The position numbers and the translations under genes are program-made. Below are positions 2,654 through 24,260 of a DNA stretch of 64,000 nucleotides, piece by piece. The DNA comes from Christensenellales bacterium. Lineage in GTDB: Bacteria; Bacillota; Clostridia; Christensenellales; CAZKXV01. Position 1 is the stretch's first letter; every line of letters starts with the position of its first letter. The stretch is taken from the NCBI GenBank assembly GCA_050952545.1, contig JBMNLD010000002.1, positions 106,889 to 170,888 on the forward strand, written 5' to 3'. The notes beneath the pieces are model-generated. The model had not been told where the DNA came from and did not search any database. It saw only the letters and a list, made by a program, of their open reading frames with translations.

Positions 2654-2654
2654 T

Positions 2655-6924: not shown

Positions 6925-6941
6925 ATCAATATGCAGAAAAG

Positions 6942-7283
6942 ATGCATCTTAAAAAGTTAGATAATTATTTGCAATTTTTTGATGATATTAAAGATGATTA
7001 TGTTCAGGTCGAAGAAGCTAAGCTAATACGAAAAGATATGTTAGATATCGATACTGTTAAACTTTCTAACATAAAAAACGATTTGTTATTTTATTTAGAT
7101 AGTTTTGGAGATATTGATAGTGAGTCATACAATGGATATGGTTCATTGCCTTTAATAGGGATTACTTGGAATAAATACTTATTAGTTGGATTGTGTAGAA
7201 GTTATTTTACCAATGAAATATTAATAAAATATGATGGAAAACAGTATAAAAAAATTACTTATAAGCTGTCTTTAAACCATTGA
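6942..7283 (+). pseudogene. C-terminal fragment of a larger hypothetical protein
   Basis: No RBS; the frame stays open upstream into the MFS junction; AT-rich codon usage. Confidence 0.45.
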
Positions 7284-7298
7284 TTTAAACCTTAAAAT

Positions 7299-7368
7299 AC
7301 ACAATAGTTGAAAAATATTACGAAAATATTGTAAAACTATTGTGTTTTTTCTTTTTGTTGTTTATAAT
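7299..7368 (+). promoter_or_regulatory. Sigma70-type promoter overlapped by an 11-bp inverted repeat (putative operator)
   Basis: TTGTGT(7340-45)-N17-TATAAT(7363-68); arms ACACAATAGTT (7299-7309) and AACTATTGTGT (7335-7345). Confidence 0.6.
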
Positions 7369-7397
7369 ATAAGTGAAATCAATGAGAGGTGTAGGAT

Positions 7398-7625
7398 ATG
7401 GAAAACAAAAAAGATAATTTTAAGCGTATATCTGAAAATAGAGTATCAAAGATTTTGACTTTACTTTCTCAATTAACTAATTTAAGTAATTCATCTTTTT
7501 ACGAATATACTGATGAGGACATAGAGAAGATATTTAATGCTATTGATGAAGAAGCTAAGAAATCAAAAGAAATATTGCTGAAGTCAAATGATAAAAAAAG
7601 AAAGAATAAAAGGTTTGAGTTATAG
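7398..7625 (+). CDS. Small conserved helical protein (putative regulator/adaptor)
   Basis: GAGAGG RBS; FKRISENRV..L..L.NLSN...YEY..EDI.KIF pattern that I recall from small genes heading RM/defence-associated operons. Confidence 0.7.
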   Translation: MENKKDNFKRISENRVSKILTLLSQLTNLSNSSFYEYTDEDIEKIFNAIDEEAKKSKEILLKSNDKKRKNKRFEL

Positions 7626-7637
7626 GAGGTAACAAAT

Positions 7638-9593
7638 ATGTCAAATAATAAGTGGAGATTCCCTGCAAGTAATCATGGTGAGAAAAAAGGTATTAGTAGT
7701 GGTGATACAGAAACATTTAAAAAAGCACCTTTCCAAGCATTTGCAAGAGAAATCTTGCAAAACTCTATTGATGCAAGATCAAGTGATGAAGAGCCAACAA
7801 GAGTAGAGTTTTCTCTTTTCAAAATAAAAACTGATGATATTCCAGGCAAGCAAGAGCTATATGATGCTATAAGACGTTGTAAAGAGTTCTGGTCATATAA
7901 AAAAGATTATGTTGCTGAATATGATTCAATGTTGACAGCACTTAGTGCCAAAGAGATTGTCTGTCTTAGAGTTAGTGATTTCAATACAACTGGATTGATA
8001 GGTGTAGAAACTACTAGACAAGAAAATAATAAATTTTTAGCATTAGCTAAAGGTACTGGTGTTTCTGAAAAAAGTGGAGTCATGGCTGGAGGTTCAAAAG
8101 GTGTTGGTAAAAACGCTGCATTCCTAATGTCATCTTTGCGTACAGTTATTTATTCTACAAAAAGTAATCAAGATATAGATGGTAATTCAGGTAGTTTTGA
8201 AGGATCTATTGGTGTCGCTGAACTAGTCTCTGGTTATGTTGATGATACCATTATTGAAAATAGAGATTATACTCAAGGAACAGGATATTACAGTATGGAC
8301 GACCTAAATGGTGCAATGAACTCCATAATGAATCTTGATCCAAATTTTACTGAGAGAAATAATGAATTTGGAACTGATATTTACATTCTTGGTTTTAACG
8401 ATGAACTTGATTGGGAAAAAGAAGTAATTAATAGTTTGTTAGATTCGTTTATGGTAACCATAGTTCGAGGTGAACTTGAAGTTAATATTAATGGTAATGA
8501 AATCAGTAAAGATACAATTGAAGATCTTGTTTATGACAATTCCATTATTAATAAAGGTAATAGAAGCAATGTTATTTCTCAATATAGACTTATTACTAAT
8601 AAAGATAATAAAGTAGTTCCGTATGATATTGAAACTGAATATGGTATTTGTCAATTATATATCCTTCCTTATGATAAATCTGAAGAAGAATTAGCAACTC
8701 ATAAATGTGCCATGATAAGACACCCATTAATGAAAATCAAAGATGAGTCTCTTGGCTCTAGTTTTAGAGTATCTGCTATGTGTATCATAAATGAAGGTAC
8801 ATTAGGTATTAAACTTAGAGATATTGAAAATGCGCAACATAAAGATTGGGAAGTCAACAGAATAAAAGATGTATATGAGAGAAAAGAAATACAAGGAATT
8901 ATTAATAGTATTAAACAACAAATAAAAGACAATGTTATTGATTGCCTTAAACTTGGTGATAATGAACCATTAGATCCTAATGGTGCTGGAGACTTCTTGC
9001 CAGATGTTGATAATGGTGGTGATTCAAGTTCTGGTGCTAATGGTCAACAAAAACCAATTGAAAATGTATCAATTTCTAAGCCAAAACCTAATAAAGTTAT
9101 TGAAAGAAATACTAATCAAGAAAATGATAATGGTAACGGTCTAGAACCAGATATTGGAGAAGTTGATGATAGTATTGATGGTGATGTTCAACATCCTACT
9201 GGTACAAACGATAAATCTGGTGAAGGAAGACACCCAGGAAGTGAATCTAGTGGCGAGCAAGAAGGTGAAAATATTGTCTTTAAGCGTGCAAAATTATCGG
9301 GTGTTAAGTATAAAGTGATTTCTACTAATAAAAATGAAGGAAGAATCAGAATAATTTTTACTGCACCAATTGATTTTGAAACATGCTATTTGAATATTGC
9401 TTTATTAGATGATGCCAATAATTCTGTTGCTGTAGATATTGAAGAATTGAATTGTAACGGAATTGATATCTATAGTGAAGATAAAAAAGAATATGGTCCA
9501 TTTAAAATTACTCGAAATGAGAAGATTGTTTTGAATGTAAAGACTAATTCAAGTGGTTATTTTGCTAGTGAGGTGAAAGTAATATGCAAGTAA
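7638..9593 (+). CDS. GHKL (HATPase_c/MORC-like) ATPase domain protein with an acidic low-complexity linker
   Basis: Bergerat motifs REILQNSIDA, DFNTTGL and GGSKGVGK; GGAGG RBS; G/D/E/N-rich region near aa 450-545. Confidence 0.8.
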   Translation: MSNNKWRFPASNHGEKKGISSGDTETFKKAPFQAFAREILQNSIDARSSDEEPTRVEFSLFKIKTDDIPGKQELYDAIRRCKEFWSYKKDYVAEYDSMLTALSAKEIVCLRVSDFNTTGLIGVETTRQENNKFLALAKGTGVSEKSGVMAGGSKGVGKNAAFLMSSLRTVIYSTKSNQDIDGNSGSFEGSIGVAELVSGYVDDTIIENRDYTQGTGYYSMDDLNGAMNSIMNLDPNFTERNNEFGTDIYILGFNDELDWEKEVINSLLDSFMVTIVRGELEVNINGNEISKDTIEDLVYDNSIINKGNRSNVISQYRLITNKDNKVVPYDIETEYGICQLYILPYDKSEEELATHKCAMIRHPLMKIKDESLGSSFRVSAMCIINEGTLGIKLRDIENAQHKDWEVNRIKDVYERKEIQGIINSIKQQIKDNVIDCLKLGDNEPLDPNGAGDFLPDVDNGGDSSSGANGQQKPIENVSISKPKPNKVIERNTNQENDNGNGLEPDIGEVDDSIDGDVQHPTGTNDKSGEGRHPGSESSGEQEGENIVFKRAKLSGVKYKVISTNKNEGRIRIIFTAPIDFETCYLNIALLDDANNSVAVDIEELNCNGIDIYSEDKKEYGPFKITRNEKIVLNVKTNSSGYFASEVKVICK

Positions 9594-10498
9594 AGAATAA
9601 AATATTTCCATACCCAGTTTTAAATAATAATAAGTTATATTCAAATTTTCCGGATGCTTCATTTGAAATAGTTTATGAAGCTGAAGAAGATGAATTTGCA
9701 TATATCCTAAAAAACATAAAATTCTCAACAGATAGTAAATTAATTAATGACTTGTTTGATAATCAAAAGATAGATATTAAACTAGTGGTTGAATGCTCTG
9801 ATACAGTCTTTAGAAAAGCTTTTAATATCAGTAAAGAGCCAAAGAGTATCCGACTTTTGAAAAATGACTTTACTGAAAAAGTTGATGTTTCTATGTTTGC
9901 AGTTGCAAAGGAAAACTTTAGAATTTCATCAAACGAATTTGATGAAGACTATCGCGACATAGAATTCGAAATTGAAAAGTATGATATTTTATGTGCAAAT
10001 GATGGCTTCAATGTTAGATTCAGACATGATGAAGCAGAGAATAATTTAGTTAAATCAATTTTTTCAATAATTCCAAGCGATAATATTAACGATGGTACAT
10101 TTGAAGTTAATTGTGAGTTAGGAAAAAAGATTACTATTTCTATATCTGACGCTGATTTTAAAAATATGAATATAGTTAATACTGTTCCAACATATAAAGA
10201 AGTAGTATTTAATATGCTATTAGTTCCTGCATTGATTGAAGGTTTGACTTTATGTTTGAAAACTGTCCAAGAAGGAACTGATGATTTAGATGATATTGGA
10301 AATAAATACGTTTGGTTTAGAAGTATATTAATGTCATATAAACGTTTATACGGAAAAGATATTACAATTGATGAATTTAAGAGTTCATCACCTGTTCTTT
10401 TAGCACAACAATTGTTAGGAAAGCCACTAGGCGCAGCTTTACATAAGCTTGTTGTTGAAACAAATAAAATAGACGAAGGAGGAAATGATAATGAGTAA
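9584..10498 (+). CDS. Hypothetical protein (N-terminal FPYPVL motif)
   Basis: 304-aa ORF overlapping its upstream and downstream genes. Confidence 0.75.
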   Translation: MQVKNKIFPYPVLNNNKLYSNFPDASFEIVYEAEEDEFAYILKNIKFSTDSKLINDLFDNQKIDIKLVVECSDTVFRKAFNISKEPKSIRLLKNDFTEKVDVSMFAVAKENFRISSNEFDEDYRDIEFEIEKYDILCANDGFNVRFRHDEAENNLVKSIFSIIPSDNINDGTFEVNCELGKKITISISDADFKNMNIVNTVPTYKEVVFNMLLVPALIEGLTLCLKTVQEGTDDLDDIGNKYVWFRSILMSYKRLYGKDITIDEFKSSSPVLLAQQLLGKPLGAALHKLVVETNKIDEGGNDNE

Positions 10499-10850
10499 AA
10501 TCAACATTAAAATGCTTTCAGAAGATGCATTAGTATATTTGAAAGAAAACGCTGAGAGTATTGCAAAGAAAATTGCAGAAAATGAAGATAATTCTTGGAT
10601 TAAAAATACCATTCCTCAATCTATACCTCTATTTGTTGAAAAGAAATTACAAATTGAAGATTTTGATTTGTTAGATAATCCGGAATCAGCCGACAAGAAT
10701 ATAGATTTTCAAAACTCTGTAAAAATTTATGAGTCGTTAAAAGAACTTCCTAGATATATTTTATGCGACCAAAGATTCTGGCTTTGGCTTCACTTGGATA
10801 AGTTCTACAAAACAGTTAGAAATATGATGAAGATTAGAGGGAAATATTAA
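10491..10850 (+). pseudogene. DUF6339-like protein, C-terminally truncated
   Basis: KMLSEDALVYLKEN...NSVKIYESLK.LP.....DQRFWLWLH resembles the DUF6339 N-terminal half; stops at ~120 aa, shorter than I recall for the family. Confidence 0.55.
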
Positions 10851-11352
10851 GATCTATTAATTGTAATGGTTCAGAAAGAAGAACTGGAAGAGAAGCTATA
10901 TTCTGGGGAATGGATAATAATATTCCTTTTCCGCAGGCAAATGATATGACAAAGATTATAAAACTTGTTATGGCTGATGAATCTGTGATTAATGATAAGG
11001 CAAAAGCCATGGAATTAATCCATGTAAGTACGACTAGACAAGTAGCATATTATTTCTCTGCACTTCAATTTTTAAAGTATCTAAAGCATGATAAGACATT
11101 TACTGATAGAGCAAATAATTTGATGAAAAATGAAGGTAAGATTATCCTAGATATTTATAATCAGTTATTAAATAATGAGATGTTTGGTAATGCTTATAAG
11201 CAATTTAAAGATTCAAAAAAAGTAAATGTTGAAGTCATTAAAATGAAATAAGAAAAAACAAGCCTAATTTAGCGGACTCAACTGTAAATAGAAGAGTATC
11301 AACAATTAAGGCATGGGTTGAATGGATGTATGGCATTGATGGTCTAATGTAG
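10838..11352 (+). pseudogene. C-terminal remnant of a restriction-endonuclease-associated winged-helix protein (DUF7226-like), frameshifted near 11240
   Basis: IPFPQAND...TRQVAYYFSALQFL, then in another frame STVNRRVSTIKAWVEW*; one added A at attaaaatg joins the two frames. Confidence 0.55.
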
Positions 11353-11373
11353 ACTTTATACATCTTATTTTAC

Positions 11374-11508
11374 AGTAAATAATTGTAGTGATTTTATTCT
11401 TAAAATTACATTTAGTGGAAACTAATGGTATAGGTATGCTAAAACCTGTTGTTTAGGTGAAAAAAATAACATTTACAAATTTAAGGTCAAATAACTATAG
11501 AGTTATTG
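11374..11508. repeat. ~135-bp diverged direct repeat, copy A
   Basis: About 111/135 identical to 23742-23875 by manual alignment; identical blocks gtatgctaaaacctgt and aaggtcaaataactatagagt. Confidence 0.85.
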
Positions 11509-11608
11509 TAGGTTCAGTAAATTGATAAAATAACTCTTTTGTTATATAATTATTCCGATAATCTGAAGTACCAGAAAGTTGAGGAAGGGCTCAAAGGAGG
11601 TACTTGCT

Positions 11609-11839
11609 ATGGATTATCGAAAAGCCATATTAGATAAAGAAGCAACAAGTATTAGACTTAGGTCCCTTAGAATCAAAGCTAATCTAACACATGATAGACT
11701 AGCTGCATTACTTCAACTAAACACACCTCGTGTGATTTATGATTGGGAATGTGCAAAGAAGATGCCTAATGTTGAAAACTTGTATAATCTGGCTCTAATA
11801 TTTAATATGAAAATGGAGGATTTACTTGTAACCAAGTAG
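11609..11839 (+). CDS. XRE-family helix-turn-helix regulator
   Basis: LRSLRIKANLTHDRLAALL...VIYDWE..K.MP...NL..LA..F; AGGAGG RBS. Confidence 0.85.
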   Translation: MDYRKAILDKEATSIRLRSLRIKANLTHDRLAALLQLNTPRVIYDWECAKKMPNVENLYNLALIFNMKMEDLLVTK

Positions 11840-11929
11840 ATCCTTCTTTTTATTTTTGAACTATAGTACATTTTGAAATTTGACACTTCTGTTATAATAA
11901 TGACGAAAACTGTAAATATGTTCTATATA

Positions 11930-11959
11930 TTGAAATAAATTTCAATAATATGATATAAT
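11930..11959 (+). promoter_or_regulatory. Sigma70-type promoter with extended -10
   Basis: TTGAAA(11930-35)-N18-TATAAT(11954-59), with TG at 11951-52. Confidence 0.55.
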
Positions 11960-12144
11960 TATAGTTGGATACAAATGCATGTTCTGAAACTGTGGAGTAA
12001 GAACTTTACCTATATGGAATGTTGGAGCGAATCTTATGGTTGGGATATACCATATGAGGAGTAAACCAATAGTTAAAAGCTAAATTTCAAGAGTGGTATT
12101 GCGTGTCTAAACAAAATAACATGTGAAGAGGATGAATGTTATTG

Positions 12145-12180
12145 AAGTGGCGATAGGCTAATACCTACCGTCACTTTTTT
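12145..12180 (+). terminator. Intrinsic terminator immediately upstream of the helicase operon
   Basis: AAGTGGCGATAGG-CTAATA-CCTACCGTCACTT stem followed by a T-run. Confidence 0.7.
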
Positions 12181-12203
12181 GGTTTTAAGGAGGTGTCAAT
12201 AAC

Positions 12204-13106
12204 ATGAAGAAAAAGAGCAAGGTTATAGGCAAGGACTACGAAAAATTAGAGAAAGAAAATCGATGCGACAGGATCGATTATTATGGCTTGATTGCCAAAG
12301 ATGGCAGAATAAAAATTGACACAAAACGTTATAAAAAATTCTTTACTATTCCAGATAGTAAAATTGAAAATAGACACTCCGTTTATTACCTTCCGACTAA
12401 ACAACATAGATCTGAATATCAATGTAATTGGTTTAGAGATCTATTAACAGGTTATAAACAATTATGGTTTAAAGAATATAAAAGCTTCATTGATAGTATT
12501 AAAACTCCAAAGCAAGTAGAAGATGATGCAAGAGTCGCACATTTAGCTGATGGAGTGCTTGATTATGAAGAAGCTAATGAAAAAGCATTTATAGCAGGCA
12601 TTAAAAGAGCAAAAGATTATAAAGTAATTATTAAATCTTTATACGCTCAATTTTTCCATCAACTAATGTCTAGCATAGATGCATTATGCTTAAAGATGCT
12701 AACTGCCTGTGGCTATAAAGAAGAAGATTATACAAAGAAGCAATTTGATATTTATATGCAGGGTTTGCAGGGTAACAATGCAATATCGTTCAGACAATAT
12801 GATAATTACAAACTTTATGATAGAGCATTCACTGTTTGGAACTTTCTAAAGCATAACTCTCTTAGATCATATAAGATCTTGAAACAATGGTATCCTAATA
12901 TGGTTTGGGACCCAGAAGATAGATATCAAAATGGTGAATCTGCACTTTCTGTTGTTAAGCTAGATGAGAAATTCATCTTAGATTGTTTGGATAACTTACA
13001 TTTATTCTTTGATGAATTATGTGCGAGAGCTTTTAATGAGAATGCTGAAGACGCACAATGGGATTATGATGATTACTTCTTGAAGACGTCGTACAAGATC
13101 AAATAG
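12204..13106 (+). CDS. Hypothetical protein, possible divergent HEPN domain
   Basis: AAGGAGGT RBS; helical; WNFLKHNS resembles the NxxKH HEPN variant. Confidence 0.6.
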   Translation: MKKKSKVIGKDYEKLEKENRCDRIDYYGLIAKDGRIKIDTKRYKKFFTIPDSKIENRHSVYYLPTKQHRSEYQCNWFRDLLTGYKQLWFKEYKSFIDSIKTPKQVEDDARVAHLADGVLDYEEANEKAFIAGIKRAKDYKVIIKSLYAQFFHQLMSSIDALCLKMLTACGYKEEDYTKKQFDIYMQGLQGNNAISFRQYDNYKLYDRAFTVWNFLKHNSLRSYKILKQWYPNMVWDPEDRYQNGESALSVVKLDEKFILDCLDNLHLFFDELCARAFNENAEDAQWDYDDYFLKTSYKIK

Positions 13107-13147
13107 ATGTTATTGTCAATCCACTAGATATATAGGAGGACAAAAGA

Positions 13148-16100
13148 ATGGCATATATATTTTTATCTTTTAGTGAACATTTAAATAGAGGAGCAAACTC
13201 AAAAAATGATTTTTATAATTTATCATTAAATGAACAATTTGAATTGCTTCAAAGAAGAATCCCATTGGAAAGACAAGTATCTAATTTTAATACTTTTATT
13301 GAAACATGTTTCCCTACTAACTTTAATAAGAAATATTATATTTCTTGCCCTAATTTCTTAAGAGAGAAACATCAAGTAGCAGAAGACAAACCATCTTTTT
13401 TAAATAATGTAGTTATTCGACCAGAATTAACTTTATCAATGAAAAGAGTTCTACCTGACAATCAAAACATCATCTTAATTGGTGATATTTATGAAGGTGG
13501 AAAATTAAAAATGTTACAGATTAAGGGATTACAATTAATTGATGATTCAATGGAATCTCCATATGATGTAAGAGTGGATGATTATTCGGTTTGTAATTCA
13601 TTTGAACGAGGATATTGGAGTATAAATCATGTTGATTACAATGATACATTTTTTACGCCTAACAACATTAAAACGATTATAGATAATTGCTGGACTGTTG
13701 AACATCCTGAGGAAATTAGAAAAACATATGAAGTTTGGAACAAGTATATTGGATTTAGAAAATACTATCTTCAAGAACAATCAAAACGTAATTTCAAATT
13801 AGATAGAGCTATGTTTGTTGAAGCATATGCTGTAAATAGAAAAGATTATAAAAAGAATGCCTCAATTTATGATGAATATCTTCTTGATGGAAGAGATGAA
13901 TTCAAATGGGGAGATATGATTGTTTTATCTGAAAAGATAGAAGATGCTGAAGAATTTCCACTTATTAGATTGGATATTGAAAGAAATAGAAAAGCATTTA
14001 ATGAAGCAAAAATTACTAAACGTGGAAAATTGGTTAATGAAGAAGAACGTAAAATTCGTTCATTATCTAGTGATAATGTATTTATTACTTCTATTGATCC
14101 TGAAAGCAAATCTCAGCATAAGGATAGAAATGGTAATCAACAACAAGTTACATTCGGTGAATTATTAAATGCTGGATATGCATTAGGCGATAGATTTAAA
14201 ATTGTTTCTTATGATATCGAACCCACTGATCATTTAGAAGAGTTAGATTTAGCATATACAAGAGATATAGATAAATCATATAAAAATATAGATGCTAAGT
14301 ATGAGAAGATTATTAAAGAAGAAGTAAAGCAAGCAGTTAATTTATATGAAAAAGAATTAAATAAACAAGCTAAAGAAAGAATTGATTTTTATAAAAATGA
14401 ATTAGATAGTTCTTTAGAACAAGATGTTTTAGAAAATAAAGATAAAAATATTATTAGTTTAATTGATAAAAAGAAAAAAGAAATTGAAACTAATGTTACA
14501 AAGAATATTAAACAAGATAAAAAAGAAAAAGATAATGAATATGCTTTAAGAATAAAAGCATTAATTGAAGATGAAATATCTAAAATTGATGTTAAGTCAT
14601 ATTATGTTGAAAGAAATTCTAAGTTATTACAAGACAATGCTAAAAGTATTGAAATGGAATTAAAGAGATTATTAACACAATATGAAGCAAAAAAGAATTC
14701 TGAAATCACTAACAAATATAAAGATGATGTTAGAAATGAAAAGATTAAATCAAAAGAAGAACTTGATGCTAAGTTAAAGTTTGATAAAGAAAAAGCTATT
14801 GATGAGGAAACAATTATTAGATTCTCATTATATTTTAGATTAGGAGATCCTAATAATGTTATTTCAGACAAACAAAAGAAGGTCGTAGATTCATGCGAAT
14901 ACATTGTTTATGATAATCGTGCTGAAAAAGCTAAGATTTCAAGACAAGAGGCAGCCTTAGATAATTTCTATTCTGGATATGTTAAGAATCCATATCTTTC
15001 AACATATCTTTTTAACCCAGAAGAATTAGATACAGTTAAAGCAGAACCTAGTGATTGGATATGGTATTTAGAATCTCTTAATGAAAAGCAAAAAGAAGCA
15101 GTTAGAAAGGCAGTTTCAAGTAATGGTATATTCTTACTTCAAGGTCCTCCAGGAACTGGTAAAACACAAGTAATTGCTGAAACAGTAGCTCAGTTAATTA
15201 AAAAAGGTAAAAAGGTATTAATTTCATCTGAAACACATAAAGCAATTGATAATGTATTTGAAAGATTACCTAAAATTGCGGAAATCGTACCTATTAGATT
15301 AATTCCTTCTAATAATGATAAAAAGAAAGAAAACGAATATGATCCAAAATTCCTAGTAGATAATTTCTATTTAAATATTTCTTCTAATATGAAGAAAGCT
15401 GTTAATAGATATAAGAATTTTGAAAAGAACAAAATAGAATTTGCTGAAAACTTTGATAAATTAAAGTTGGCAAAAGCCAAAATAGAAAAATCTCAAAAGG
15501 TTTTAGATAAGGCTAACGAAGAAATCAAAAAGTTTGAAGACAATGCTAAAGACATTAATTCTAAGATATCAGTATTAAATGATAAAAAGGACTTGGTCAG
15601 AATTGATATTGATATCTTAAGAAGAACTAAACGTCATATTGAAAATGATAATTTGAGACCTGATGAAGATGTAAAGGTTGACTTGATTGTTGATGTAAGA
15701 AAGAAACTAGAACCTTTATTTGAAAAAGATGTTTATATCGATGATGATTTAGGTCAATTATTAAAGAATATCAATTCAATTAAAAATGATGAAATAGAAC
15801 GTGAATTAGCAGTTATTAATCCTGAATCCAATAAAACTATTCTTGAAGTTAAGAAAAATGATTTAAAGGCTGAATTAAATAAATATGTTGATGAATTAGG
15901 AGACATTATTGATACTAATAATGAGGAAAAAGTTGAAAGAAATTAAAAATGAATTAAGAAAGGTTTTGAAAGAACTTAAGGCTGAATCAGTTGGCGTATC
16001 TTTAAACGATTTAAAACTTAATAAGATTTTTAATTATTCATACTTAGTTGCAAATATTTCTTTAATTCCAGAAGTTATTAGAACTGTAAAAGATAGAATT

Positions 16101-17657
16101 ATTGAGATTAAATCTTCAACGATAGAAGTTCTAAATAAAGAATTACGTACTATTGAAGATAAACAAGCAGAACTAGATAAAGAAATAGATTCATTAAAGC
16201 AACAAATAAAAGTAATTAATGAAAATATTATTGATATTCAAGAAAGAAATGATGTTAAAGATATTCAAGAAGCCAAATATAAGCTTGAGAATGATTTAAT
16301 AAAATTCTTTAAAGATTTTGAAATTGCTGAACCTTATAAGGATGTAGATGAAGGACTAAAGATTATTAAACGTAAATGGTCTGAGCTTGAAGATGATTTC
16401 CAAGCGAAGGAACAAGAAAATAAAGAAAAAATACCTATGTATGAAAAGATCGCAAATTACATCACTAGTGAAGATGTAATTGAAGAAGATAGAAAGGTAT
16501 TTACTAAAGACTTGTTTGAAAATGCTAATGTATTTGGTATTACATGTACATCTAACGATAGATTCAGCGGAAGAAATGTTGATGCATTATCTGAATATAA
16601 TATCGATGAGATTGATATTAAATCCGTTGGTATTGATGTAGTTATTATCGATGAGGTTTCTAAATCAAGTTTTATAGATTTATTGATACCTATTCTTTAT
16701 GGTAAAACAGTTATCCTAGTTGGAGACCATAGACAATTGCCTCCAATGTATGAATTCTCCAAATTAAGAGATGATGATTTTGAAGGATTAGATGAGACAA
16801 TTATTAATAAAGAAATTAATAAAGAGTTTACTAAATTGTATGAAGAGTGTTTCTTCAAAACTCTATTTGAAAGAATACCAGATAGTTATAAAACTATGTT
16901 AGTTCAACAATATAGATGTCATGAACATATTATGAATGTATTTAACCACTTCTATAAAGGCGAATTAAAACTAGGTTTTGCAGGTCAAAACAATAATAAA
17001 CGTCATAATGTTAAATTACTATCAAATGGTAGAAATATTATCGAACCAGATAAACATATTTATTTTGTTGATTGTAAGCAAAATGAAACGCATGAAGCTG
17101 ATTCAACATCTATGTACAATACTGGTGAAGCTAGAGTTGTAGTTGAATTAATCAGAAAAATGAATACATATTTCAAGTCGCATCCAGAACTTGAAAAGCT
17201 AAGCATTGGTGTTATTTGTACATATGGAGACCAAGCTAGAAGAGTAAAAGAATTACTTAAGAGTGAAAAGGTTAAAACAGATGCATTTAAAACAGATGTT
17301 GAAAAAATGATTGTTTCAACTGTCGATGATTTCCAAGGTGATGAAAGAGATATTATCATTTTATCTACAGTTAGAAATCCTGAAAATCCAAAAAGAAGTG
17401 ATCCTGGATTTATCCTAGCTTATCAAAGAATTAATGTTGCTTTATCTAGAGCAAGAAGAATGCTTATTATGGTAGGTAACAGAAAATATCTTGAAGAAAA
17501 AGGTGTGATTGATTTACCAGATGTCTATGGTCGTGTTGGTAAAGAACAAAGAAACTTCAGAGTTTATGAAGAAATCTTAGCTACTATAGAACGCTATGGT
17601 AAAGTAATCGAAGATATTGATGTATTAGATGATAAGGAGGCGAGAATAAATGGATAA
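13148..17657 (+). CDS. Upf1/DNA2-like SF1 helicase (~1500 aa, long coiled coils), split into ORFs 13148-15946 and 15909-17657 by a +1 frameshift at an A5 run (15927-15931)
   Basis: Motifs QGPPGTGKT and SSETHKAIDN in part 1; IIDEVSK, LVGDHRQLPP, QYRCH, TVDDFQGDERD and RINVALSRAR in part 2; removing one A reads EEKLKEIK. Confidence 0.9.
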
Positions 17658-19782
17658 GTTTAAACTAGAAACTTCTATACAATTTCCATTCTTTAAAATG
17701 AATGAACTTGTTACATATTCTGAAGTTAAAAAGCCTAGTGGTGTTGCTTATATTTTACTAGTTCTAATTAGTGAATCTAAGAATAAAAACGATAGATTAT
17801 CCAAAGTATTAGAAAACTTCGGAATACCTAAATCTCTACATTATATTTTCGCTGATAATGTCCAATACTTAATGGAACAAGGAATATTAGAAGAATTTAA
17901 TTTTTATAAAACTGAATTTGATAATTACCTAATTGGTTCATTTCAATTTACTTCAAAAGGTAAAAAGATATTTGCTGAAGAATCTATACCTACAGGTATT
18001 AATAAAGAATTAAAAGTCCCAGTATTTTATAATATTGCAATGAATGAACTATCATTGAAGATGGATAATGATTTAGATCCAAAACCATTAATGGACTGTG
18101 CTATTACTCCTGAATTTATGGATAGATTTAAGAACGAAAAGAATGTTGAAAATTTCTTAAATCTTCAAAAAGGAAAAGGAATAAGTGTTAAAAAAGAAGA
18201 AATCATAACTAATGTAGAACAATTAGATCAAGAAAATTGGATCGGAAAATATGATTGCGATATGAACATTAATGGCGATGATATTGAAATTAAATTTGAT
18301 GAATTGCTATTACAAAAATTCTTTGATGCTAATTACAATCAAAACATGGTTAATTTAGCTATTTCTTATAAAAACAGATTTAAGTTTAAATCATCTTTTA
18401 AAGATAATCTTAAACTAAGTAATTATGGTTTTGATAGAATTGCAGGAATAATTATTCCAAAAGAGATAGATGATGTTTTAAAACAAAAGAATCAATTATT
18501 ACTTACAAAGGGTAATTATAAAACTTCAAATGGTTATATGATTACTAGTTCGGAGTCTATTTCAAAATATGATGATACGATTGAATTTATTCAAGTAGAT
18601 ATGCACGATTCTGTTTATGCATATATTCCAGGCAATTTTAATTTTAACAATAATCTATTTGGAATTATTACAATTCCTCTTGCTTTAAAGATTAAATTGA
18701 CTGAAGAAGAATTGAAAAATGTCATTAAACCTTATGTAGTATCATTATCTACATATAGTGAAGATAATTTTAAAGAATTAGTTAAGGTCACAAATATCAC
18801 TGATGACTTGAAGCTAGCAAAAGAGATTATTGAAGGTTATGTAAATGAAGATGCTGAAAGTAATATTGTTTTATTAAATGAAATGAAGCCATATGCTATA
18901 TCTAATTCAGGTATATCAAATATTTATAGAGAATTGTTAGAAAAGAATTATAGCAATTATATGGATACCATCACTGAAGATAATCTTGATACAGCACTTA
19001 AGATAACTGCTTCAATTCCTAAGTTCTTAAATATTCCAAATAAGGATGTTTTATCAAGAATATTTAAGAATATAAAAGTTAAAAACGAGTTAGAAACTTA
19101 TGAAACATTAGTAAGTAAAGGCTTTGATAAATCACTAGTTGTTTTATATGTTAATCCAGTAATTGAAGCATTAAAGATAAGAAATTCTGAAGAAAAAAGC
19201 ATAATTGATTTAATTAACTATGATGATGCTTTATCAGAAATGAAGAGAATAACTTCTATTAACGATTACAAGAGTTATTTATATGATGAAGAAAAGATTA
19301 ATCATAATGATTTCAAAACAAACTATAATAAAGCATTTAATCTTCAAAAGAATATTGCTGTATTTAGAAGTGGTAATGAAGGATTATTTGCTAATTATGA
19401 TGGGTTCATGAATTTATTCTCAACTATTAATGATGATATTAATTTAGTTGAAGCTGCACTTAAGAATCCTAATAATTTAAAGCCAGAATTAATTGAAAAG
19501 AAAATAGCTAGTGGTGAATATCAATTTGTATTTGTTAATCTTTCTGCAAAATTAGAAACAATTTTAAAAAACAAATATAAATTAGATGGCAAATTATCTG
19601 ATATGTTAAATGACGCAAGATCTAATGGTATAATTGATAAGAAGGTTATTAGTGATTTGCATGATTTTAGAGATAATAGAAATGCATATGTTCATCCTGA
19701 AGATAGAACATCAAATTATAATGCTGATGATTTAAGAAGATGGTCTAAAGAAATCTTTGATTTGGAGGTGGAAGGAAAATGA
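17650..19782 (+). CDS. 710-aa hypothetical protein with a C-terminal HEPN-like motif
   Basis: Overlaps the helicase stop; C-terminal DLHDFRDNRNAYVHP fits the Rx4H HEPN motif. Confidence 0.7.
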   Translation: MDKFKLETSIQFPFFKMNELVTYSEVKKPSGVAYILLVLISESKNKNDRLSKVLENFGIPKSLHYIFADNVQYLMEQGILEEFNFYKTEFDNYLIGSFQFTSKGKKIFAEESIPTGINKELKVPVFYNIAMNELSLKMDNDLDPKPLMDCAITPEFMDRFKNEKNVENFLNLQKGKGISVKKEEIITNVEQLDQENWIGKYDCDMNINGDDIEIKFDELLLQKFFDANYNQNMVNLAISYKNRFKFKSSFKDNLKLSNYGFDRIAGIIIPKEIDDVLKQKNQLLLTKGNYKTSNGYMITSSESISKYDDTIEFIQVDMHDSVYAYIPGNFNFNNNLFGIITIPLALKIKLTEEELKNVIKPYVVSLSTYSEDNFKELVKVTNITDDLKLAKEIIEGYVNEDAESNIVLLNEMKPYAISNSGISNIYRELLEKNYSNYMDTITEDNLDTALKITASIPKFLNIPNKDVLSRIFKNIKVKNELETYETLVSKGFDKSLVVLYVNPVIEALKIRNSEEKSIIDLINYDDALSEMKRITSINDYKSYLYDEEKINHNDFKTNYNKAFNLQKNIAVFRSGNEGLFANYDGFMNLFSTINDDINLVEAALKNPNNLKPELIEKKIASGEYQFVFVNLSAKLETILKNKYKLDGKLSDMLNDARSNGIIDKKVISDLHDFRDNRNAYVHPEDRTSNYNADDLRRWSKEIFDLEVEGK

Positions 19783-20867
19783 GTCAACAAGTAACCGTTG
19801 ATTATCAAGGTGTATCTATTCAAGTACAAGCTAAATGTGACACAGCTGTTCATTCATTGTGTCAAATAGATAAAGTGCTTGATAGAATACATAATACAGC
19901 AGATAAACTTGAAACTGCTAAAGTAAAAGAGTATGAAGCTTATTTGCAAAAATCCAAGGAAACAATCAAAGAAAAGATTGAAGCGTTTAAGAAGACTCTA
20001 GAAAAATACAAAGAAGCTAGGGCTTATTCAGTTAATAATCATCAACCAGATTATCAACAATTCATTAACTTTACTAATAAGGTTCAAGCTGAATCAGAAG
20101 AATTAATTAGAACAGTTAATGAATTAACTGGTTCTAAACTTGCAGTAATAGATCAGATGATTGATGAAGGCTTATTAAATGCTGGTCAGGAAACAACTCA
20201 AGCTATGTTAGATAAATTGCATGGTGTAGTTTCAATCTCAAGTGACATTTTATCCAAGATAAATAACATTGAAGATGTTTCATTAAGAGAACTAGCATAT
20301 AAAGAAATCCTTAAGAACGATAAACTTAGCTTTGATGAAGTAATCACTAAAGCACAAGATGAATATGATATTCTTTTAGGAAAACAAACAAAAAAGGTTA
20401 TTCAAGAATATAAAGAAGAGCTTACTTCTAAAGGTATTACTACAGAAGAATTAGATAAAGCTAAATCTATTGATGAAGCTAATGCTATTGCTAATGAAGC
20501 AATTACTGATGAAACGGTAAGAAAAGAAACTTTAAAAGTTATTATTAAAGCAATCAAAGATAGAGGATTCATTGTTGATACAAAGAAGAATCTTAAGATT
20601 GATAAAGAAAGAAATATTGTTAAATTAGTTGCATTAAAAGCATCTGGACAAATGGCTGAGTTTGAAATTCAACTTAATGGTAAGTTTATGTACCACTTTG
20701 ATGAATATGAAGGCCATGCATGTAAGAAAGATATAGAACCATTCTTAGAAGATTTAAAGAATATCTACGATATCAATATTCTTCATGAAGAAGTAACGTG
20801 GGAAAATCCAGATAAGATTCAAACTCAAAAATATCAATACATAAACAAAAACAAGGGTACTAATTAG
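19779..20867 (+). CDS. Coiled-coil protein with a C-terminal DUF2997-like domain
   Basis: ATGA overlap with the upstream stop; helical N-terminus; C-terminal FDEYEGHACKKDIEPFLEDL. Confidence 0.6.
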   Translation: MSQQVTVDYQGVSIQVQAKCDTAVHSLCQIDKVLDRIHNTADKLETAKVKEYEAYLQKSKETIKEKIEAFKKTLEKYKEARAYSVNNHQPDYQQFINFTNKVQAESEELIRTVNELTGSKLAVIDQMIDEGLLNAGQETTQAMLDKLHGVVSISSDILSKINNIEDVSLRELAYKEILKNDKLSFDEVITKAQDEYDILLGKQTKKVIQEYKEELTSKGITTEELDKAKSIDEANAIANEAITDETVRKETLKVIIKAIKDRGFIVDTKKNLKIDKERNIVKLVALKASGQMAEFEIQLNGKFMYHFDEYEGHACKKDIEPFLEDLKNIYDINILHEEVTWENPDKIQTQKYQYINKNKGTN

Positions 20868-20878
20868 GAGGTAAACAC

Positions 20879-22696
20879 ATGTCTTTACAAAATAGTTTTA
20901 ATAAAATCAGAAGAAATGCTGGAATTAAAAAATGTGTCATGATTGATGGCAATGTTGGTGACGTTTATCTAAATGAAAAGAATAATATCGTTACATTAAG
21001 AGAATATCTTGAAGCAATGTTCAAGGATATGGATTATCAAGACATTGTTTACTGGGATAGAGTTGAAGGTGCAACTGGTGCAATTGATAAGCTAACTTTA
21101 ACTGATGAAGTTGAAGTAGAAGGTGATGCATACGATTTAGGTGATGATGAAGAAGAAACACCAAAAGCACAACAAGGTTTATTTAAATCACCTGCTGAAA
21201 TTTTAAATGTTGTTTATAAGAATGTAATTGATAAAAAGAAGAAAGTTGCTTTTATTATTAACTGGTCAGAATATCTATTTAGTGTTAATGGGTTAAGTGA
21301 TGATGAAAGACAAAATATTACATTATTAGGGAAAGCATTAAAGGATAGAAAAGTTGATTATTTAAATACTGACTGCAATGAAAGTGTTGTTGTCATTATT
21401 TTAAATAAAGCATCTGGATTACCATTATCTTTCTATCAAGGGAATCCTGAAGTTGAAATTGTAACATTACAAAAACCAGATAGAGAAGAAAGAAAACAAA
21501 TGATTCAAAAAATAGAAGATTCATTTGAAGTAAGATTAAAATCTGGTACTAGTTCATTGCTAGATGCTGAAAATATAGATTGTATTGATATGCTTGAAGA
21601 TTTTACTAATCGTGAGATTATTCAATTATCAAGAATGTCTAGAAAAGAAGATAAGATGACTTTTGATAAGTTGTTCTATTTATTTAAATATGGTGAAAAA
21701 GAAAATCCATGGGAAAAATTAGAACAATCTAGAGTTAAAAACATTAAAAAAGAATTATCTGATAGAGTTATAGGTCAAGAAGAAGCGATTGACAAAATAG
21801 AAAAGACTGTTGTTAAAGCATATATGGGTTTAACAGGCCTTCATAAAACTTCATCAAGATCAATGCCAAAAGGTGTATTCTTCTTTGTTGGTCCTACTGG
21901 TGTAGGTAAAACTGAGCTTTCAAAGGCTTTAGCTAAATTCTTATTTGGTGATGAACAAGCTTGTATTAGATTTGATATGTCTGAATATGCTCAAGAGAAT
22001 AGTGATCAAAAATTAATAGGTGCTGCACCTGGATATGTTGGATATGAAGAAGGTGGCCAATTAACAAATGCTATTAAAGAACACCCATTCTCAGTTGTTC
22101 TGTTTGATGAAATTGAAAAGGCTGCAAAACCTAATCCACGTATTCTAGATATATTCTTACAAATTTTGGAAGATGGTCGCTTAACTGATTCTAAAGGTGA
22201 AACTGTATACTTCAGCGACACAATTATAGTATTCACATCTAACTTAGGTGCTAACCAAGTTCAAGCATCATCTGATAAAGAAGGTGTAGCAAAAGAATTT
22301 ATTAAGATTGTAAAAGATTACTTTGATAATGAATTAAAGAGACCAGAATTATTAGGACGTATCGGATACAATAATATCGTTCCATTTAATTTCATTCAAG
22401 ATAGAGATTTCCAAGTTAAGATTTGTAAGAACAAACTAAAACCAGTTATCAGGGGAATAGAAGAAAAATATAAACTTGAATTGGAATTTGAAAAAGAATT
22501 GGAAGCTATCGAATATATCCTAAAAGCTGTAGATTCATCAAAAGGTGGTCGTGATATTTTAAATGCTATCAATGATAGATTATTAGATCCTCTTGCAATG
22601 TTCTTATTTGAAAATAAAGATGAGTTACGTTCTTTAAAAGGAAGTAGAATTATTACAAAGGTAACTAAAGATGGATTCAGCTTTGACTTCGATTAA
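20879..22696 (+). CDS. ClpB/ClpA-like AAA+ ATPase (single intact NBD2-type module, degenerate N-terminal half)
   Basis: GPTGVGKT, RFDMSEY, LIGAAPGYVGYEEGGQLT and VVLFDEIEKA; no second Walker A. Confidence 0.9.
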   Translation: MSLQNSFNKIRRNAGIKKCVMIDGNVGDVYLNEKNNIVTLREYLEAMFKDMDYQDIVYWDRVEGATGAIDKLTLTDEVEVEGDAYDLGDDEEETPKAQQGLFKSPAEILNVVYKNVIDKKKKVAFIINWSEYLFSVNGLSDDERQNITLLGKALKDRKVDYLNTDCNESVVVIILNKASGLPLSFYQGNPEVEIVTLQKPDREERKQMIQKIEDSFEVRLKSGTSSLLDAENIDCIDMLEDFTNREIIQLSRMSRKEDKMTFDKLFYLFKYGEKENPWEKLEQSRVKNIKKELSDRVIGQEEAIDKIEKTVVKAYMGLTGLHKTSSRSMPKGVFFFVGPTGVGKTELSKALAKFLFGDEQACIRFDMSEYAQENSDQKLIGAAPGYVGYEEGGQLTNAIKEHPFSVVLFDEIEKAAKPNPRILDIFLQILEDGRLTDSKGETVYFSDTIIVFTSNLGANQVQASSDKEGVAKEFIKIVKDYFDNELKRPELLGRIGYNNIVPFNFIQDRDFQVKICKNKLKPVIRGIEEKYKLELEFEKELEAIEYILKAVDSSKGGRDILNAINDRLLDPLAMFLFENKDELRSLKGSRIITKVTKDGFSFDFD

Positions 22697-23225
22697 GTTT
22701 AATGTAGCATATATAAAATTATGCACTAAAACTGAAGGTCCGTATAAGAGATGCTGCATTTGGTTTCAAGGATGTAACATCAATTGCAGAGGATGTTGTA
22801 ATAAGAATTTGCAACCATTAGTTCCAAATCATATAGTTACATTAAAAGAACTTATCGATATTGTTAAAGAAGCTAAAGATAAGTTTGATATAGAAGGTAT
22901 AACTCTCAGTGGTGGAGAGCCTTCTTTACAAACTGGTTTAAAATACTTTAATAATGAGATTCGTAAATTAGGATTAGGAATCATAATGTTTTCAGGAAAA
23001 AGCAAAACTTATCTAGATAAAAGTCTAGTTGAATCTGTTGATTTATTAATTGATGGTCCGTTTATTGAAGAACAACTTGATGACAAGAGAGTATTATTAG
23101 GTTCTAAGAATAAGGAACTATCTTTTATTACTGATAGATATAAAAAAGAAGAAGGATACTTCGACAATCCTATATCTATTGAAGAAGTAACAGCAGAAGA
23201 TTATATCTTCATAAATGGGGACTGA
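22671..23225 (+). CDS. NrdG/PFL-activase-like radical SAM (4Fe-4S) protein
   Basis: WFQGCNINCRGC (CxxxCxxC), GITLSGGEP and DLLIDGPF. Confidence 0.9.
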   Translation: MDSALTSIKFNVAYIKLCTKTEGPYKRCCIWFQGCNINCRGCCNKNLQPLVPNHIVTLKELIDIVKEAKDKFDIEGITLSGGEPSLQTGLKYFNNEIRKLGLGIIMFSGKSKTYLDKSLVESVDLLIDGPFIEEQLDDKRVLLGSKNKELSFITDRYKKEEGYFDNPISIEEVTAEDYIFINGD

Positions 23226-23227
23226 TT

Positions 23228-23728
23228 ATGGATAAAAAAAGAATAGAAAGTGAAATGAGAGAATTAGAAATTAAAATTCATTATCATTTTAATGACATAT
23301 CATGGCTTGCTAAAGCTATGGGTTCTATAAAAATACCTGTTCCAGGTCAAGGAAAGAATGGTTCTGAATATTCTAATGAAGGCTTGGCTACTGTTGGTGA
23401 TACTATATTAAAATCAGTTATTGCTGATAAGTTTTATAGAGAAGGAATAAGAACCAAAGGTGAGATTACAATTAAAAAGAGCGGTATAGAAGACAATGCA
23501 ACAATGCATGATGTAATGATCTACGAAGGTTTAATTGATTATTCTTATAACGATTTACATTTCTTCAAAGATCCAAATATTCCTGACCATGAGCAAGTTG
23601 TGCATAAGGCACATGATCCATATATTGAAGCTATGGTTGGAGCTGTGTATTATGATTCAGGAAATTATGACACAACTAAACGCTGGATTCTAAAGTGGTT
23701 ATTACCTCTTTTAGAGAAGTATAAATAG
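23228..23728 (+). CDS. Ribonuclease III-domain protein lacking a dsRBD (Mini-III-like)
   Basis: NEGLATVGDTIL and YIEAMVGAVYYD; only 166 aa. Confidence 0.8.
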   Translation: MDKKRIESEMRELEIKIHYHFNDISWLAKAMGSIKIPVPGQGKNGSEYSNEGLATVGDTILKSVIADKFYREGIRTKGEITIKKSGIEDNATMHDVMIYEGLIDYSYNDLHFFKDPNIPDHEQVVHKAHDPYIEAMVGAVYYDSGNYDTTKRWILKWLLPLLEKYK

Positions 23729-23741
23729 CACCAATTCTAAT

Positions 23742-23875
23742 AGTAAATAATGTTAGTTATTTGTATCTCAAAATGACATTTAATTGAAAGTAATGGAAAA
23801 TGTATGCTAAAACCTGTCGTTTAAGTGAAAATTTTAATTTAACAAATTGAAGGTCAAATAACTATAGAGTGATTG
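23742..23875. repeat. ~135-bp diverged direct repeat, copy B
   Basis: See copy A; begins 14 bp after the RNase III-like stop codon. Confidence 0.85.
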
Positions 23876-23891
23876 ACACTTAAATAGATAG

Positions 23892-23920
23892 AAAGGTAGG
23901 AGTGATTCTTACCTTTTTTC
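23892..23920 (+). terminator. Intrinsic terminator at the end of the AT-rich operon
   Basis: AAAGGTAGGA-GTGAT-TCTTACCTTT followed by T-runs. Confidence 0.65.
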
Positions 23921-24035
23921 TTTTTACAACATAGCTACTATATAGGTCGTTAATTGAAAAGTATTATCTTAAGCAAATTATATTTACTAGATAAATCTAG
24001 TAAAATGGAAGCAATAATAAAGGCGTGGTGGTAAT

Positions 24036-24095
24036 TTGGATAAGAAAGAATACTTAAGTCGATATCATAATTTAATAGAACGAATTGAAATATAA
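24036..24095 (+). pseudogene. 5' stub of a phage-type gene (DUF1492/ArpU-like), cut at the repeat junction
   Basis: TTG start after GGTGGT; reads MDKKEYLSRYHNLIERIE and then enters the repeat at 24090. Confidence 0.3.
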
Positions 24096-24184
24096 GCTAG
24101 ACAGCGACAAGCAAAAGGGAGACATAGCAAAAATACGGACAAAAAGTCCGTATTTGCTATGCGACTATAAGCGCAGTCGTTGTC
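24090..24184 (-). repeat. tRNA-linked multi-hairpin element, tRNA-proximal partial copy
   Basis: 24090-24186 is identical to 2559-2655; abuts the CCA of tRNA-Val. Confidence 0.9.
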
Positions 24185-24260
24185 TGGTGGGCAATAAGGG
24201 ACTCGAACCCCTGACTTCCTCCATGTGACGGAGGCACTCTACCAACTGAGTCAATTGCCC
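24185..24260 (-). tRNA. tRNA-Val(CAC)
   Basis: 76-nt cloverleaf GGGCAATT...CCACCA; anticodon arm CCTCC-GT CAC AT-GGAGG; GTTCGA T-loop. Confidence 0.95.

Follow-up and report, generated by a model that had tools for sequence, protein, structure and literature searches.

A repeated non-coding element at the borders of defense cargo in temperate phages of Mollicutes-like gut Bacillota

The stretch of DNA analyzed here (64,000 nucleotides from a contig of a Christensenellales bacterium; hereafter, the window) carries a defense island with a GC content of ~28%, against 47% for the host genome. Within the island lie two diverged copies of a non-coding element, here called copy A and copy B, together with two cargo modules and the start of a phage regulator gene (Table 1). 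The first-pass annotation had described ~135-bp diverged direct repeats with invariant blocks of 16 and 21 bp, each beginning 14 to 22 bp past the last stop codon of a module and together bracketing a module that runs from an XRE gene to an RNase III gene, and this description holds. The two copies share 83% mean column identity in a MAFFT alignment; by ungapped extension, identity is 82% for the first 90 nt and 75% for the 65 nt that follow. A BLAST search inside the genome gave 82% identity (E=4.5e-32). The 21-mer AAGGTCAAATAACTATAGAGT occurs exactly twice, at 11483 and 23850, against an expectation of 0 from 100 shuffles, and the 16-mer GTATGCTAAAACCTGT is exact in both copies (11434 and 23802). 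A search for a third copy across the 1.83-Mb genome found none.

Copy A starts 22 bp past the stop codon (11350-11352) of a frameshifted DUF7226 gene, and copy B starts 14 bp past the stop codon (23726-23728) of the RNase III-like gene; in B-type copies from other contigs, conservation extends back up to the stop codon. Between the two copies, module 2 encodes, in order, an XRE protein, a 300-amino-acid protein, an SF1 helicase, a DUF4145 protein, a 362-amino-acid protein, a ClpB-like AAA+ protein, a radical-SAM activase-like protein, and an RNase III-domain protein. Module 1 is unrelated to the sequence found 5′ of copy A in other genomes. The terminator that follows B-type copies is conserved in most contigs, and in L024-type contigs its left arm reads as a ribosome-binding site (RBS) followed by ATG. 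The late-regulator gene is truncated where phage homology ends (24090), and the 96-bp direct repeat that begins there marks the right border of the island.

Table 1. Features of the island in window coordinates
Feature	Position	Strand	Evidence or remark
Cargo module 1, 5′ of copy A	7638..11352	+	PDC-M33A/B-like candidate defense genes; decayed DUF6339 and DUF7226 genes
Copy A, A-type junction element	11374..11508	+	Alignment, exact k-mers
Copy A 5′ palindrome AAATAATTGTAGTGATTT	11377-11394	+	
Copy A invariant core CTAAAACCTGTTGTTTAGGTG	11439-11459	+	
Copy A 3′ palindrome AAATAACTATAGAGTTATTG	11489-11508	+	
Sigma-70-type promoter of XRE gene, TTGATA-17-TATAAT	11522..11550	+	Outside the repeat, just 3′ of copy A
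Cargo module 2, between the repeats	11579..23728	+	Gene order in text
Copy B, B-type junction element	23742..23875	+	Conserved leader back to stop codon at 23726
Copy B 5′ palindrome AAATAATGTTAGTTATTT	23745-23762	+	
Copy B core	23807-23827	+	
Copy B 3′ palindrome	23856-23875	+	
Intrinsic terminator	23890..23918	+	15 nt past copy B
Late-regulator gene start, ArpU/DUF1492-like, sigma region 4	24036..24090	+	First 55 nt only
96-bp exact direct repeat of window 2560-2655	24091..24186	.	Abuts end of phage-derived DNA and tRNA genes

Positions 11375 to 24090 of the window match the phage contig G002 at 96 to 98% identity, with homology starting at 11375. G002 is a complete temperate phage of 53.7 kb (CheckV, 100%), of which cargo makes up ~22 kb, and its genes include serine integrases, cI/cro, a replication initiator, an ArpU-like regulator, HNH, terminase, and structural genes. 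Of such a phage or prophage, the window holds only a decayed, cargo-only remnant, and its defense island turns out to be phage-derived DNA that was kept after every virion gene had been lost. The first reading overlooked that the locus is a phage fragment. The homologues of copies A and B lie at 17.4 kb and 29.8 kb of the 53.7 kb of G002, with no recombinase between them. Since both copies are thus internal to a complete phage genome, we rejected the possibility that they are the attL and attR of an island.

Prophages in gut MAGs of Mollicutes-like bacteria and of Anaeroplasmataceae, and in contigs from the human gut, carry the element two to three times each (three in G002; two to three in each of G003, G004, and G005). 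Fifteen metagenome loci, many from the human gut, carry it as well, and its distribution extends well beyond the present locus. BLAST searches of GenBank phage and PLSDB plasmid collections returned no match, and the element is absent from the more distant ArpU-type phages L039-L044. Matches of the 16-mer alone (L010-L012) and of the core pattern (L046 and L050) were dismissed as chance. Every copy lies in direct orientation on one strand and contains one or two similar palindromes of the form AAATAA-N6-TTATTT plus the invariant core CTAAAACCTGTYGTTT. Three stable subtypes differ in the central bases of the palindrome, which are TG in type A, GT in type B, and CC in a third type that we call copy 0; A-type and B-type copies remain distinct across contigs. 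Outside the elements, the palindrome motif is not enriched in these phages and is absent from the cI-cro region, and we rejected it as a general operator. Partial copies also occur: L029 retains only the 3′ half, G265 has an internal deletion, and G005 carries a solo palindrome. Their ends fall at differing, irregular positions, as would be expected if they arose by general or illegitimate recombination and not by crossover at one fixed site.

What lies beside the element varies from genome to genome. At least eight distinct upstream flanks and at least five downstream flanks were recovered, and the neighboring cargo, in operons of 4 to 12 kb, includes PDC-M33, Tsp45I and DpnII restriction-modification systems, GmrSD, TIR-SieB, AbiH, DUF4238, and GHKL proteins. 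The suggestion that the element sits at module boundaries with interchangeable cargo operons is thereby upheld. At the left edge of copy A, homology to G002 begins at G002 position 17439 in the window, 17433 in G004, and 17441 in G005; three independent genomes therefore break within 8 bp, each with unrelated defense cargo upstream. These comparisons indicate that different gene blocks are swapped exactly at the edge of the element. These breakpoints alone are no proof of homologous exchange, since any recombination mechanism would be expected to leave a break where the only shared sequence has its edge, and a scan of SNP density across copy A revealed no crossover zone. Elements do not form every border: on its left, the first variable slot is delimited by the end of the replication gene, and copy 0 of G002, G003, and G005 sits inside conserved backbone, away from any cargo border.

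Our preferred reading, which we hold at about even confidence, is that a temperate phage family in low-GC Mollicutes-like gut Bacillota uses the element as a conserved non-coding leader or linker, that it binds protein, and that it acts as portable homology for cargo exchange in the manner of the promoter-early stem-loops (PeSLs) of T4-type phages. In the phage backbone, the element stands before successive transcription units of the early/accessory region: copy 0 immediately precedes the replication-initiator gene, an A-type copy precedes the next cargo unit, and a B-type copy precedes the terminator and the ArpU-like late-regulator gene. The palindromes and core would be putative binding sites, most likely for a dimeric DNA-binding protein of phage or host. 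Since the element is the sole sequence common to otherwise unrelated defense cargo, it would serve as portable homology, a role that the comparative breakpoints bear out; recombination at the element between related phages or prophages would then insert, replace, or delete entire cargo modules.

Nothing relevant was found in the literature except PeSLs and dif modules. One criterion of a PeSL cassette is that element-plus-gene mini-circles form. As with PeSLs, indel and replacement breakpoints between related phages fall here at the elements, which are the exchange points between otherwise unrelated sequences (three genomes within 8 bp). PeSLs are repeated short non-coding elements between non-essential genes in the variable regions of lytic myoviruses, and each consists of a strong sigma-70 early promoter and a terminator stem-loop (PMC2839356; PMC4122927). 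The present element, in contrast, has no canonical promoter and no internal terminator, measures ~135 bp with two palindromes, belongs to temperate phages of Mollicutes-like Bacillota, and borders multigene defense operons, whereas PeSLs border single ORFans.

A rival reading, which we consider rather unlikely, takes the element to be nothing but a regulatory leader (for example, a promoter under activator or repressor control, an operator, or an antitermination loading site) that was duplicated before three transcription units; cargo borders would then coincide with it only because each unit begins there, and it would have no special role in exchange. Copy 0 speaks for this reading as well as for our preferred one. 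In G002, G003, and G005, the Lin1244_N replication-initiator gene has copy 0 as its direct upstream leader, and the overlap takes in the RBS and ATG of the gene, which makes the element family, at the least, a derivative of a gene leader. The first-pass annotation had named two findings that would count against its idea, namely, confinement of the element to this locus, which is not the case, and identity with the promoter or untranslated region of a gene family, which applies in part through this leader with its RBS and ATG. An RBS and ATG also follow the element directly in L026 and L024, and the succession of copy B, terminator, and late regulator resembles the pR′-tR′ arrangement of lambda. 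On inspection of the sequences, nearly every copy retains A2 and T6 of a −10-like hexamer, YATRCT, and the center of the 5′ palindrome lies ~62 bp upstream of the inferred start; however, both the hexamer and a TAAAAC block are altered in the diverged G003 copy. No sigma-70 promoter is shared among the copies, and counts from consensus scans were no higher than in shuffles, and we rejected a canonical promoter within the element; a regulatory role is accordingly one that we infer. Likewise, no terminator lies within the 135 bp, and only B-type copies are followed by one. The XRE gene 3′ of copy A has a strong promoter of its own outside the element. Finally, a purely regulatory role does not account for the junctions with unrelated cargo that, in three genomes, all lie within 8 bp at the left edge.

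Site-specific recombination is a second alternative to the leader or linker that offers portable homology, and we give it a low probability. Under it, the palindromes would be core sites for an Xer-like tyrosine recombinase or for one of two large serine recombinases, cargo between two sites would move as a cassette, and the type-specific central bases would prevent recombination within a genome. A gene for an Xer-like tyrosine recombinase does lie three genes upstream of copy 0, and the backbone order in G002, G003, and G005 (tyrosine recombinase, Bro-N/ANT, a 76-amino-acid HTH_17 protein of the excisionase family, copy 0) is suggestive, as is the stop codon of the HTH_17 gene, which falls within the 5′ palindrome. 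The 6-6-6 palindromes, with their ATAA-N6-TTAT core, have what we take to be a likeness to dif-type sites; their central bases vary by subtype, the left border is sharp in more than 10 contexts, and in A-type as in B-type copies, the 5′ end can form a long hairpin with the 3′ end. Yet the recombinase has no match at E≤1e-20 in six of the nine element-bearing genomes (G000, G004, G196, G265, G195, and G024), and palindrome arms of only 6 bp are short for the core site of a tyrosine recombinase. Three direct copies per genome would invite deletion, the partial copies end irregularly, and copy 0 sits in the conserved backbone instead of at a cargo border. In or near the island of the window, no recombinase was found, and the phage tyrosine recombinase has no match in the genome to which the window belongs.

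The analysis did not bear out the integron-like logic initially suggested. Integron cassettes are mostly promoterless single open reading frames, and the attC core is RYYYAAC/GTTRRRY, in a conserved single-stranded hairpin that has R and L boxes. Like attC sites, the elements are non-coding, resemble recombination sites, and lie 3′ of each cargo unit, with the units in one orientation; a tyrosine recombinase gene precedes the first site, and an imperfect hairpin can form between the element ends. This recombinase is nevertheless Xer-like, not IntI, and missing from most element genomes. Against the integron-integrase model (TIGR02249, cutoff of 265), it scored 61.8 bits, and its best match was an Xer-type model, also under the cutoff. 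By inspection, the element lacks RYYYAAC/GTTRRRY, every copy having AAATAAT ... GTTATTG or GTGATTG at its ends; its cargo consists of 4- to 12-kb operons with their own promoters (for module 2, 11522-11550); and sequence is conserved, not structure alone. Predicted end-to-end pairing appears in the A-type set (−18.5 kcal/mol) and in the B-type set (−13.2) but is absent from the joint alignment (−3.3); such pairing also follows trivially from the presence of two similar palindromes. A further comparison is with the pdif/dif modules of Acinetobacter plasmids, in which accessory modules likewise lie between short palindromic sites, there of Xer type, and occur in varied combinations in related replicons. 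Those sites, however, are 28-bp 11-6-11 XerC/XerD sites of alternating orientation that form the entire boundary (PMC6449649, PMC13141974), whereas the 6-6-6 palindromes here are in direct orientation inside a 135-bp conserved element. A bolder version, which we regard as improbable, would make the elements heterospecific sites of a phage-borne cassette platform, in which an Xer-like tyrosine or large serine recombinase would use double site-specific recombination at sites of like type, A with A and B with B, to swap the whole defense operons of co-resident phages, while the central bases would block self-deletion. If true, this would amount to a virus-carried, integron-like system for multigene defense cargo.

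A conserved structured RNA (a 3′ untranslated region, small RNA, or put-like antiterminator), the first of which had also been proposed from the window, is very improbable and already largely refuted: taken on its own, copy A folds a little better than shuffled sequence (z=−1.95) and copy B with its terminator might yield an RNA of ~105 nt, but copy B on the plus strand gave z=−0.16, the RNAalifold consensus of 13 sequences reached −3.3 kcal/mol with five pairs and 0 covarying (the minus strand being equally poor), a candidate central hairpin is missing in the diverged G003 copy, and a search with Rfam 15 covariance models found no match to the element at the gathering threshold or at E≤1.

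Prophages are major carriers of antiphage defense, and shuffling of their cargo has mostly been described via conserved flanking genes. In the hotspots of P2/P4-type prophages and satellites that Rousset et al. reportedly described in 2022, variable antiphage cargo is bordered by conserved core genes. The phages considered here likewise hold variable antiphage cargo in fixed slots of a conserved temperate-phage backbone, but the inner borders of the slots are copies of one short non-coding element repeated within the phage. The element provides a simple sequence handle for defense cargo in poorly studied gut Mollicutes-like bacteria, including PDC-M33 and the uncharacterized XRE-to-RNase III operon, and it offers a tractable test of homologous versus site-specific cassette exchange in phages. 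Within that operon, the SF1 helicase is a single open reading frame of 1502 to 1509 amino acids in G002 and G004, while the version in the window is broken into parts of 932 and 582 amino acids.

Copies A and B of the ~135-bp direct repeat share 83% mean column identity when aligned and ~82% identity both by ungapped extension and by BLAST, with a 21-mer, AAGGTCAAATAACTATAGAGT, and a 16-mer, GTATGCTAAAACCTGT, that are exact in both; the 21-mer had no match in 100 dinucleotide-preserving shuffles. Alignment, BLAST, and exact k-mers thus confirmed, as written, the description in the first-pass annotation of two diverged direct repeats with shared 16- and 21-bp blocks, 14 to 22 bp 3′ of stop codons. 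No third copy was found in the 1.83 Mb (3 contigs) of the window's genome, G000. We conclude that the repeat is real and has biological meaning: it represents a new family of non-coding junction elements, repeated within the defense-cargo region in one lineage of temperate phages from gut Mollicutes-like bacteria.

Features of the island and its borders in the window
Feature	Position	Remark
Piece of tRNA 3′ end	2481-2506	26 bp, 2 mismatches to the tRNA at 24188-24260; 53 bp left of left 96-bp repeat
Left 96-bp direct repeat	2560-2655	exact
Region between 96-bp repeats	2656-24090	50% GC metabolic/transport gene block and 28% GC phage-derived block
Low-GC region	6925-24090	~28% GC; two minus-strand tRNA genes follow
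Module 1	7638-11352	5′ of copy A
PADLOC candidate system PDC-M33	7638-10498	651-aa and 304-aa proteins (A, E=2.6e-132; B, E=1.4e-52)
Decayed end of module 1	10485-11352	DUF6339 ORF matches N-terminal 44/175 profile positions only
A-run in DUF7226 gene	11252-11259	frameshift
Stop codon	11350-11352	22 bp before copy A
Copy A	11374-11508	
XRE gene promoter	11522-11550	outside repeat
XRE-to-RNase III module	11579-23728	between copies A and B
SF1 helicase ORFs	13148-17657	932 aa and 582 aa, overlapping
Stop codon	23726-23728	14 bp before copy B
Copy B	23742-23875	
Terminator after copy B	23890-23918	outside repeat
20-mer TATTATCTTAAGCAAATTAT	23962-23981	upstream of ArpU-like gene
Right 96-bp direct repeat	24091-24186	adjoins tRNA 3′ end
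tRNA	24188-24260	

Positions 11375 to 24090 of the window are 96 to 98% identical to G002 (IMG/VR IMGVR_UViG_3300009767_000642, alias Ga0116161_1000332), a 53,752-bp temperate phage that CheckV estimates to be 100% complete. G002 encodes, in order, two large serine recombinases, cI-like and cro-like genes, an Xer-like tyrosine recombinase, a Bro-N/ANT antirepressor, a 76-aa HTH_17 protein of the excisionase family, a Lin1244_N-type replication initiator, defense cargo, and an ArpU/DUF1492-like late regulator with HNH, small and large terminase, and virion genes. The cargo takes up ~22 kb of 53.7 kb, or roughly 40%, and lies after the replication gene and before the late regulator (8.2 to 29.8 kb). 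Since copies A and B are both internal to this complete phage, we ruled out that they are the attL/attR pair of the island.

Virion genes are absent from the window, and the G002 large terminase as a query had no match in G000, with G002 itself recovered as a positive control. The SF1 helicase, a single ORF of 1,502 to 1,509 aa in G002 and in the uncultured genome G004, is split in the window, the DUF7226 gene is frameshifted, and phage homology ends at 24090, 55 nt inside the ArpU-like gene and right where the 96-bp repeat starts. Given the missing virion genes, the broken genes, and this end of homology, we conclude that the island is a decayed prophage remnant that retains cargo only. Its split helicase also means that the XRE-to-RNase III system of the window is probably inactive, or that a sequencing error is present; the helicase of G005 is broken too, and metagenome contig L024 carries an intact DUF7226 homologue of 119 aa. 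The low GC content of the island against ~43 to 50% for the G000 genome, together with 28 to 29% in the prophage regions fetched from relatives in Anaeroplasmataceae and Mollicutes-like MAGs, suggests that the phage-derived DNA was acquired across a compositional, possibly taxonomic, gap. At the tRNA, the 96-bp repeats look like the true limits of a composite island.

Elsewhere, the element turned up in pattern scans and with an nhmmer profile. G002 holds three copies (copy 0 at 7.1 kb, A-type at 17.4 kb, and B-type at 29.8 kb), a second viral contig, L009, also carries the element, and further copies were found in 15 metagenome loci, many of them from human gut, and in three species-representative MAGs with two to three copies each: G003 (Anaeroplasmataceae), G004 (1.1 Mb), and G005 ("Mollicutes bacterium Phil14"). 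No matches were found in the GenBank phage and PLSDB plasmid collections. A sequence-only covariance model placed the element in 5 of 307 genomes of the order to which G003 belongs, with more diverged copies among those detected; the element is therefore limited to one narrow lineage of phages and is no general trait of these bacteria. The diagnostic differences between A-type and B-type copies are kept from contig to contig, which argues that the A/B duplication is older than the divergence of these phages.

All subtypes share a 5′ site, AAATAAY-NN-TAG-TKATTT, that forms a 6-6-6 palindrome (AAATAA/TTATTT) with central bases TG in A-type, GT in B-type, and CC or TG in copy 0. They also share the block GAAA[CG]TAA[TA]GGAA and an invariant core, CTAAAACCTGTYGTTTWRGTG; this core and the 5′ 35 nt are the best-conserved parts in diverged copies. 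A second palindrome, AAATAAC-TATAGA-GT[TG]ATT, is present in A and B types and missing from copy 0, where the equivalent bases, AGGAGGTGAAACATGG, serve the replication-initiator gene as ribosome-binding site (RBS) and start codon. The upstream HTH_17 gene has its stop codon inside the 5′ palindrome of copy 0. Copy 0 lies within conserved backbone; homology of G003 and G005 to G002 continues across it and does not break off until close to the end of the replication gene. Partial copies end at different positions: L029 has the 3′ half only, G265 lacks the middle, and G005 has a lone 5′ palindrome in another intergenic spacer. Outside elements, the palindrome motif showed no statistical enrichment. 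In L025 (~6700-6760, oriented with the element as +), an A-type copy has a 27-bp tandem duplication, CTATAGAGTTATTGTACGTTCAGTAAA, that spans the right half of its 3′ palindrome.

At least 8 unrelated flanks occur upstream of the element and at least 5 downstream. Neighboring cargo includes PDC-M33A/B in the window; Tsp45I and DpnII restriction-modification systems (the latter with two methylases), GmrSD, a TIR-SieB protein, and the 12-kb XRE-to-RNase III operon in G002; AbiH, DUF4238, and GHKL ATPases on metagenome contigs; and other large proteins in G003, G004, and G005. The XRE-to-RNase III module lies between A-type and B-type copies in the window, G002, and G004, and begins 3′ of an A-type copy in G005. 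Homology to G002 starts at G002 positions 17439 (window), 17433 (G004), and 17441 (G005). The three starts fall in an 8-bp interval at the left edge of the A copy, and each is preceded by unrelated DNA. The expectation that different cargo operons are interchanged beside the copies was therefore borne out; a SNP-density scan over copy A did not localize crossovers.

The conserved 3′ structured RNA proposed in the first-pass annotation was largely refuted: the element matched no known RNA family, the 13-copy consensus fold was weak (-3.3 kcal/mol, 5 pairs, 0 covarying), the minus strand folded no better than the plus strand, and the sole candidate hairpin is missing from the diverged G003 copy. 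No sigma-70-type promoter common to the copies was found. Because of its paired palindromes, its invariant core, and the position of copy 0 as a gene leader, the element probably has a regulatory function. That it is purely regulatory, with no special part in exchange, we consider unlikely beside the shared breakpoints. With moderate confidence, we instead propose a protein-binding leader or linker before successive phage units that is also a site of module exchange between related phages. The phage would keep the element ahead of replication, the next cargo unit, and the late regulator; as the sole homology between unrelated cargo blocks, the element would be where related phages recombine to exchange, gain, or lose whole modules.

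It is similarly doubtful that exchange proceeds by site-specific recombination at the palindromes, through the phage Xer-like tyrosine recombinase or a serine recombinase. The gene order recombinase, HTH_17, copy 0 and the subtype-specific central bases favor it, as does the ATAA-N6-TTAT palindrome core, which may be dif-like. However, the palindrome arms are short, partial copies end irregularly, and the tyrosine recombinase had no matches at E ≤ 1e-20 in six further element-bearing genomes. The Xer-like recombinase is also not IntI; the integron-like reading is unproven, with a low but real probability. In its logic, the proposed linker and exchange site comes closest to the PeSL elements of T4-type phages, where exchange occurs at short shared elements (PMC2839356, PMC4122927). 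Since the phage element lacks the promoter and stem-loop that define PeSLs, we regard it as an analogue and not a member.

Other observations concern DNA near the element. In L024-type contigs (L024 4100-4810, oriented with the element as +), the left arm of the terminator after B-type copies reads as an RBS and ATG, which opens a frameshifted remnant resembling a large serine recombinase in its zinc-ribbon and coiled-coil part. In L022 (12035-13294), the gene just 3′ of the terminator encodes HTH and Mu-transposase C-terminal domains; we read its protein as IS21-like. The 20-mer upstream of the ArpU-like gene occurs again in the cI-cro intergenic region of G002 (~4745-4765 of record L019) and may be a shared operator/promoter element tying the immunity region to late-gene control.
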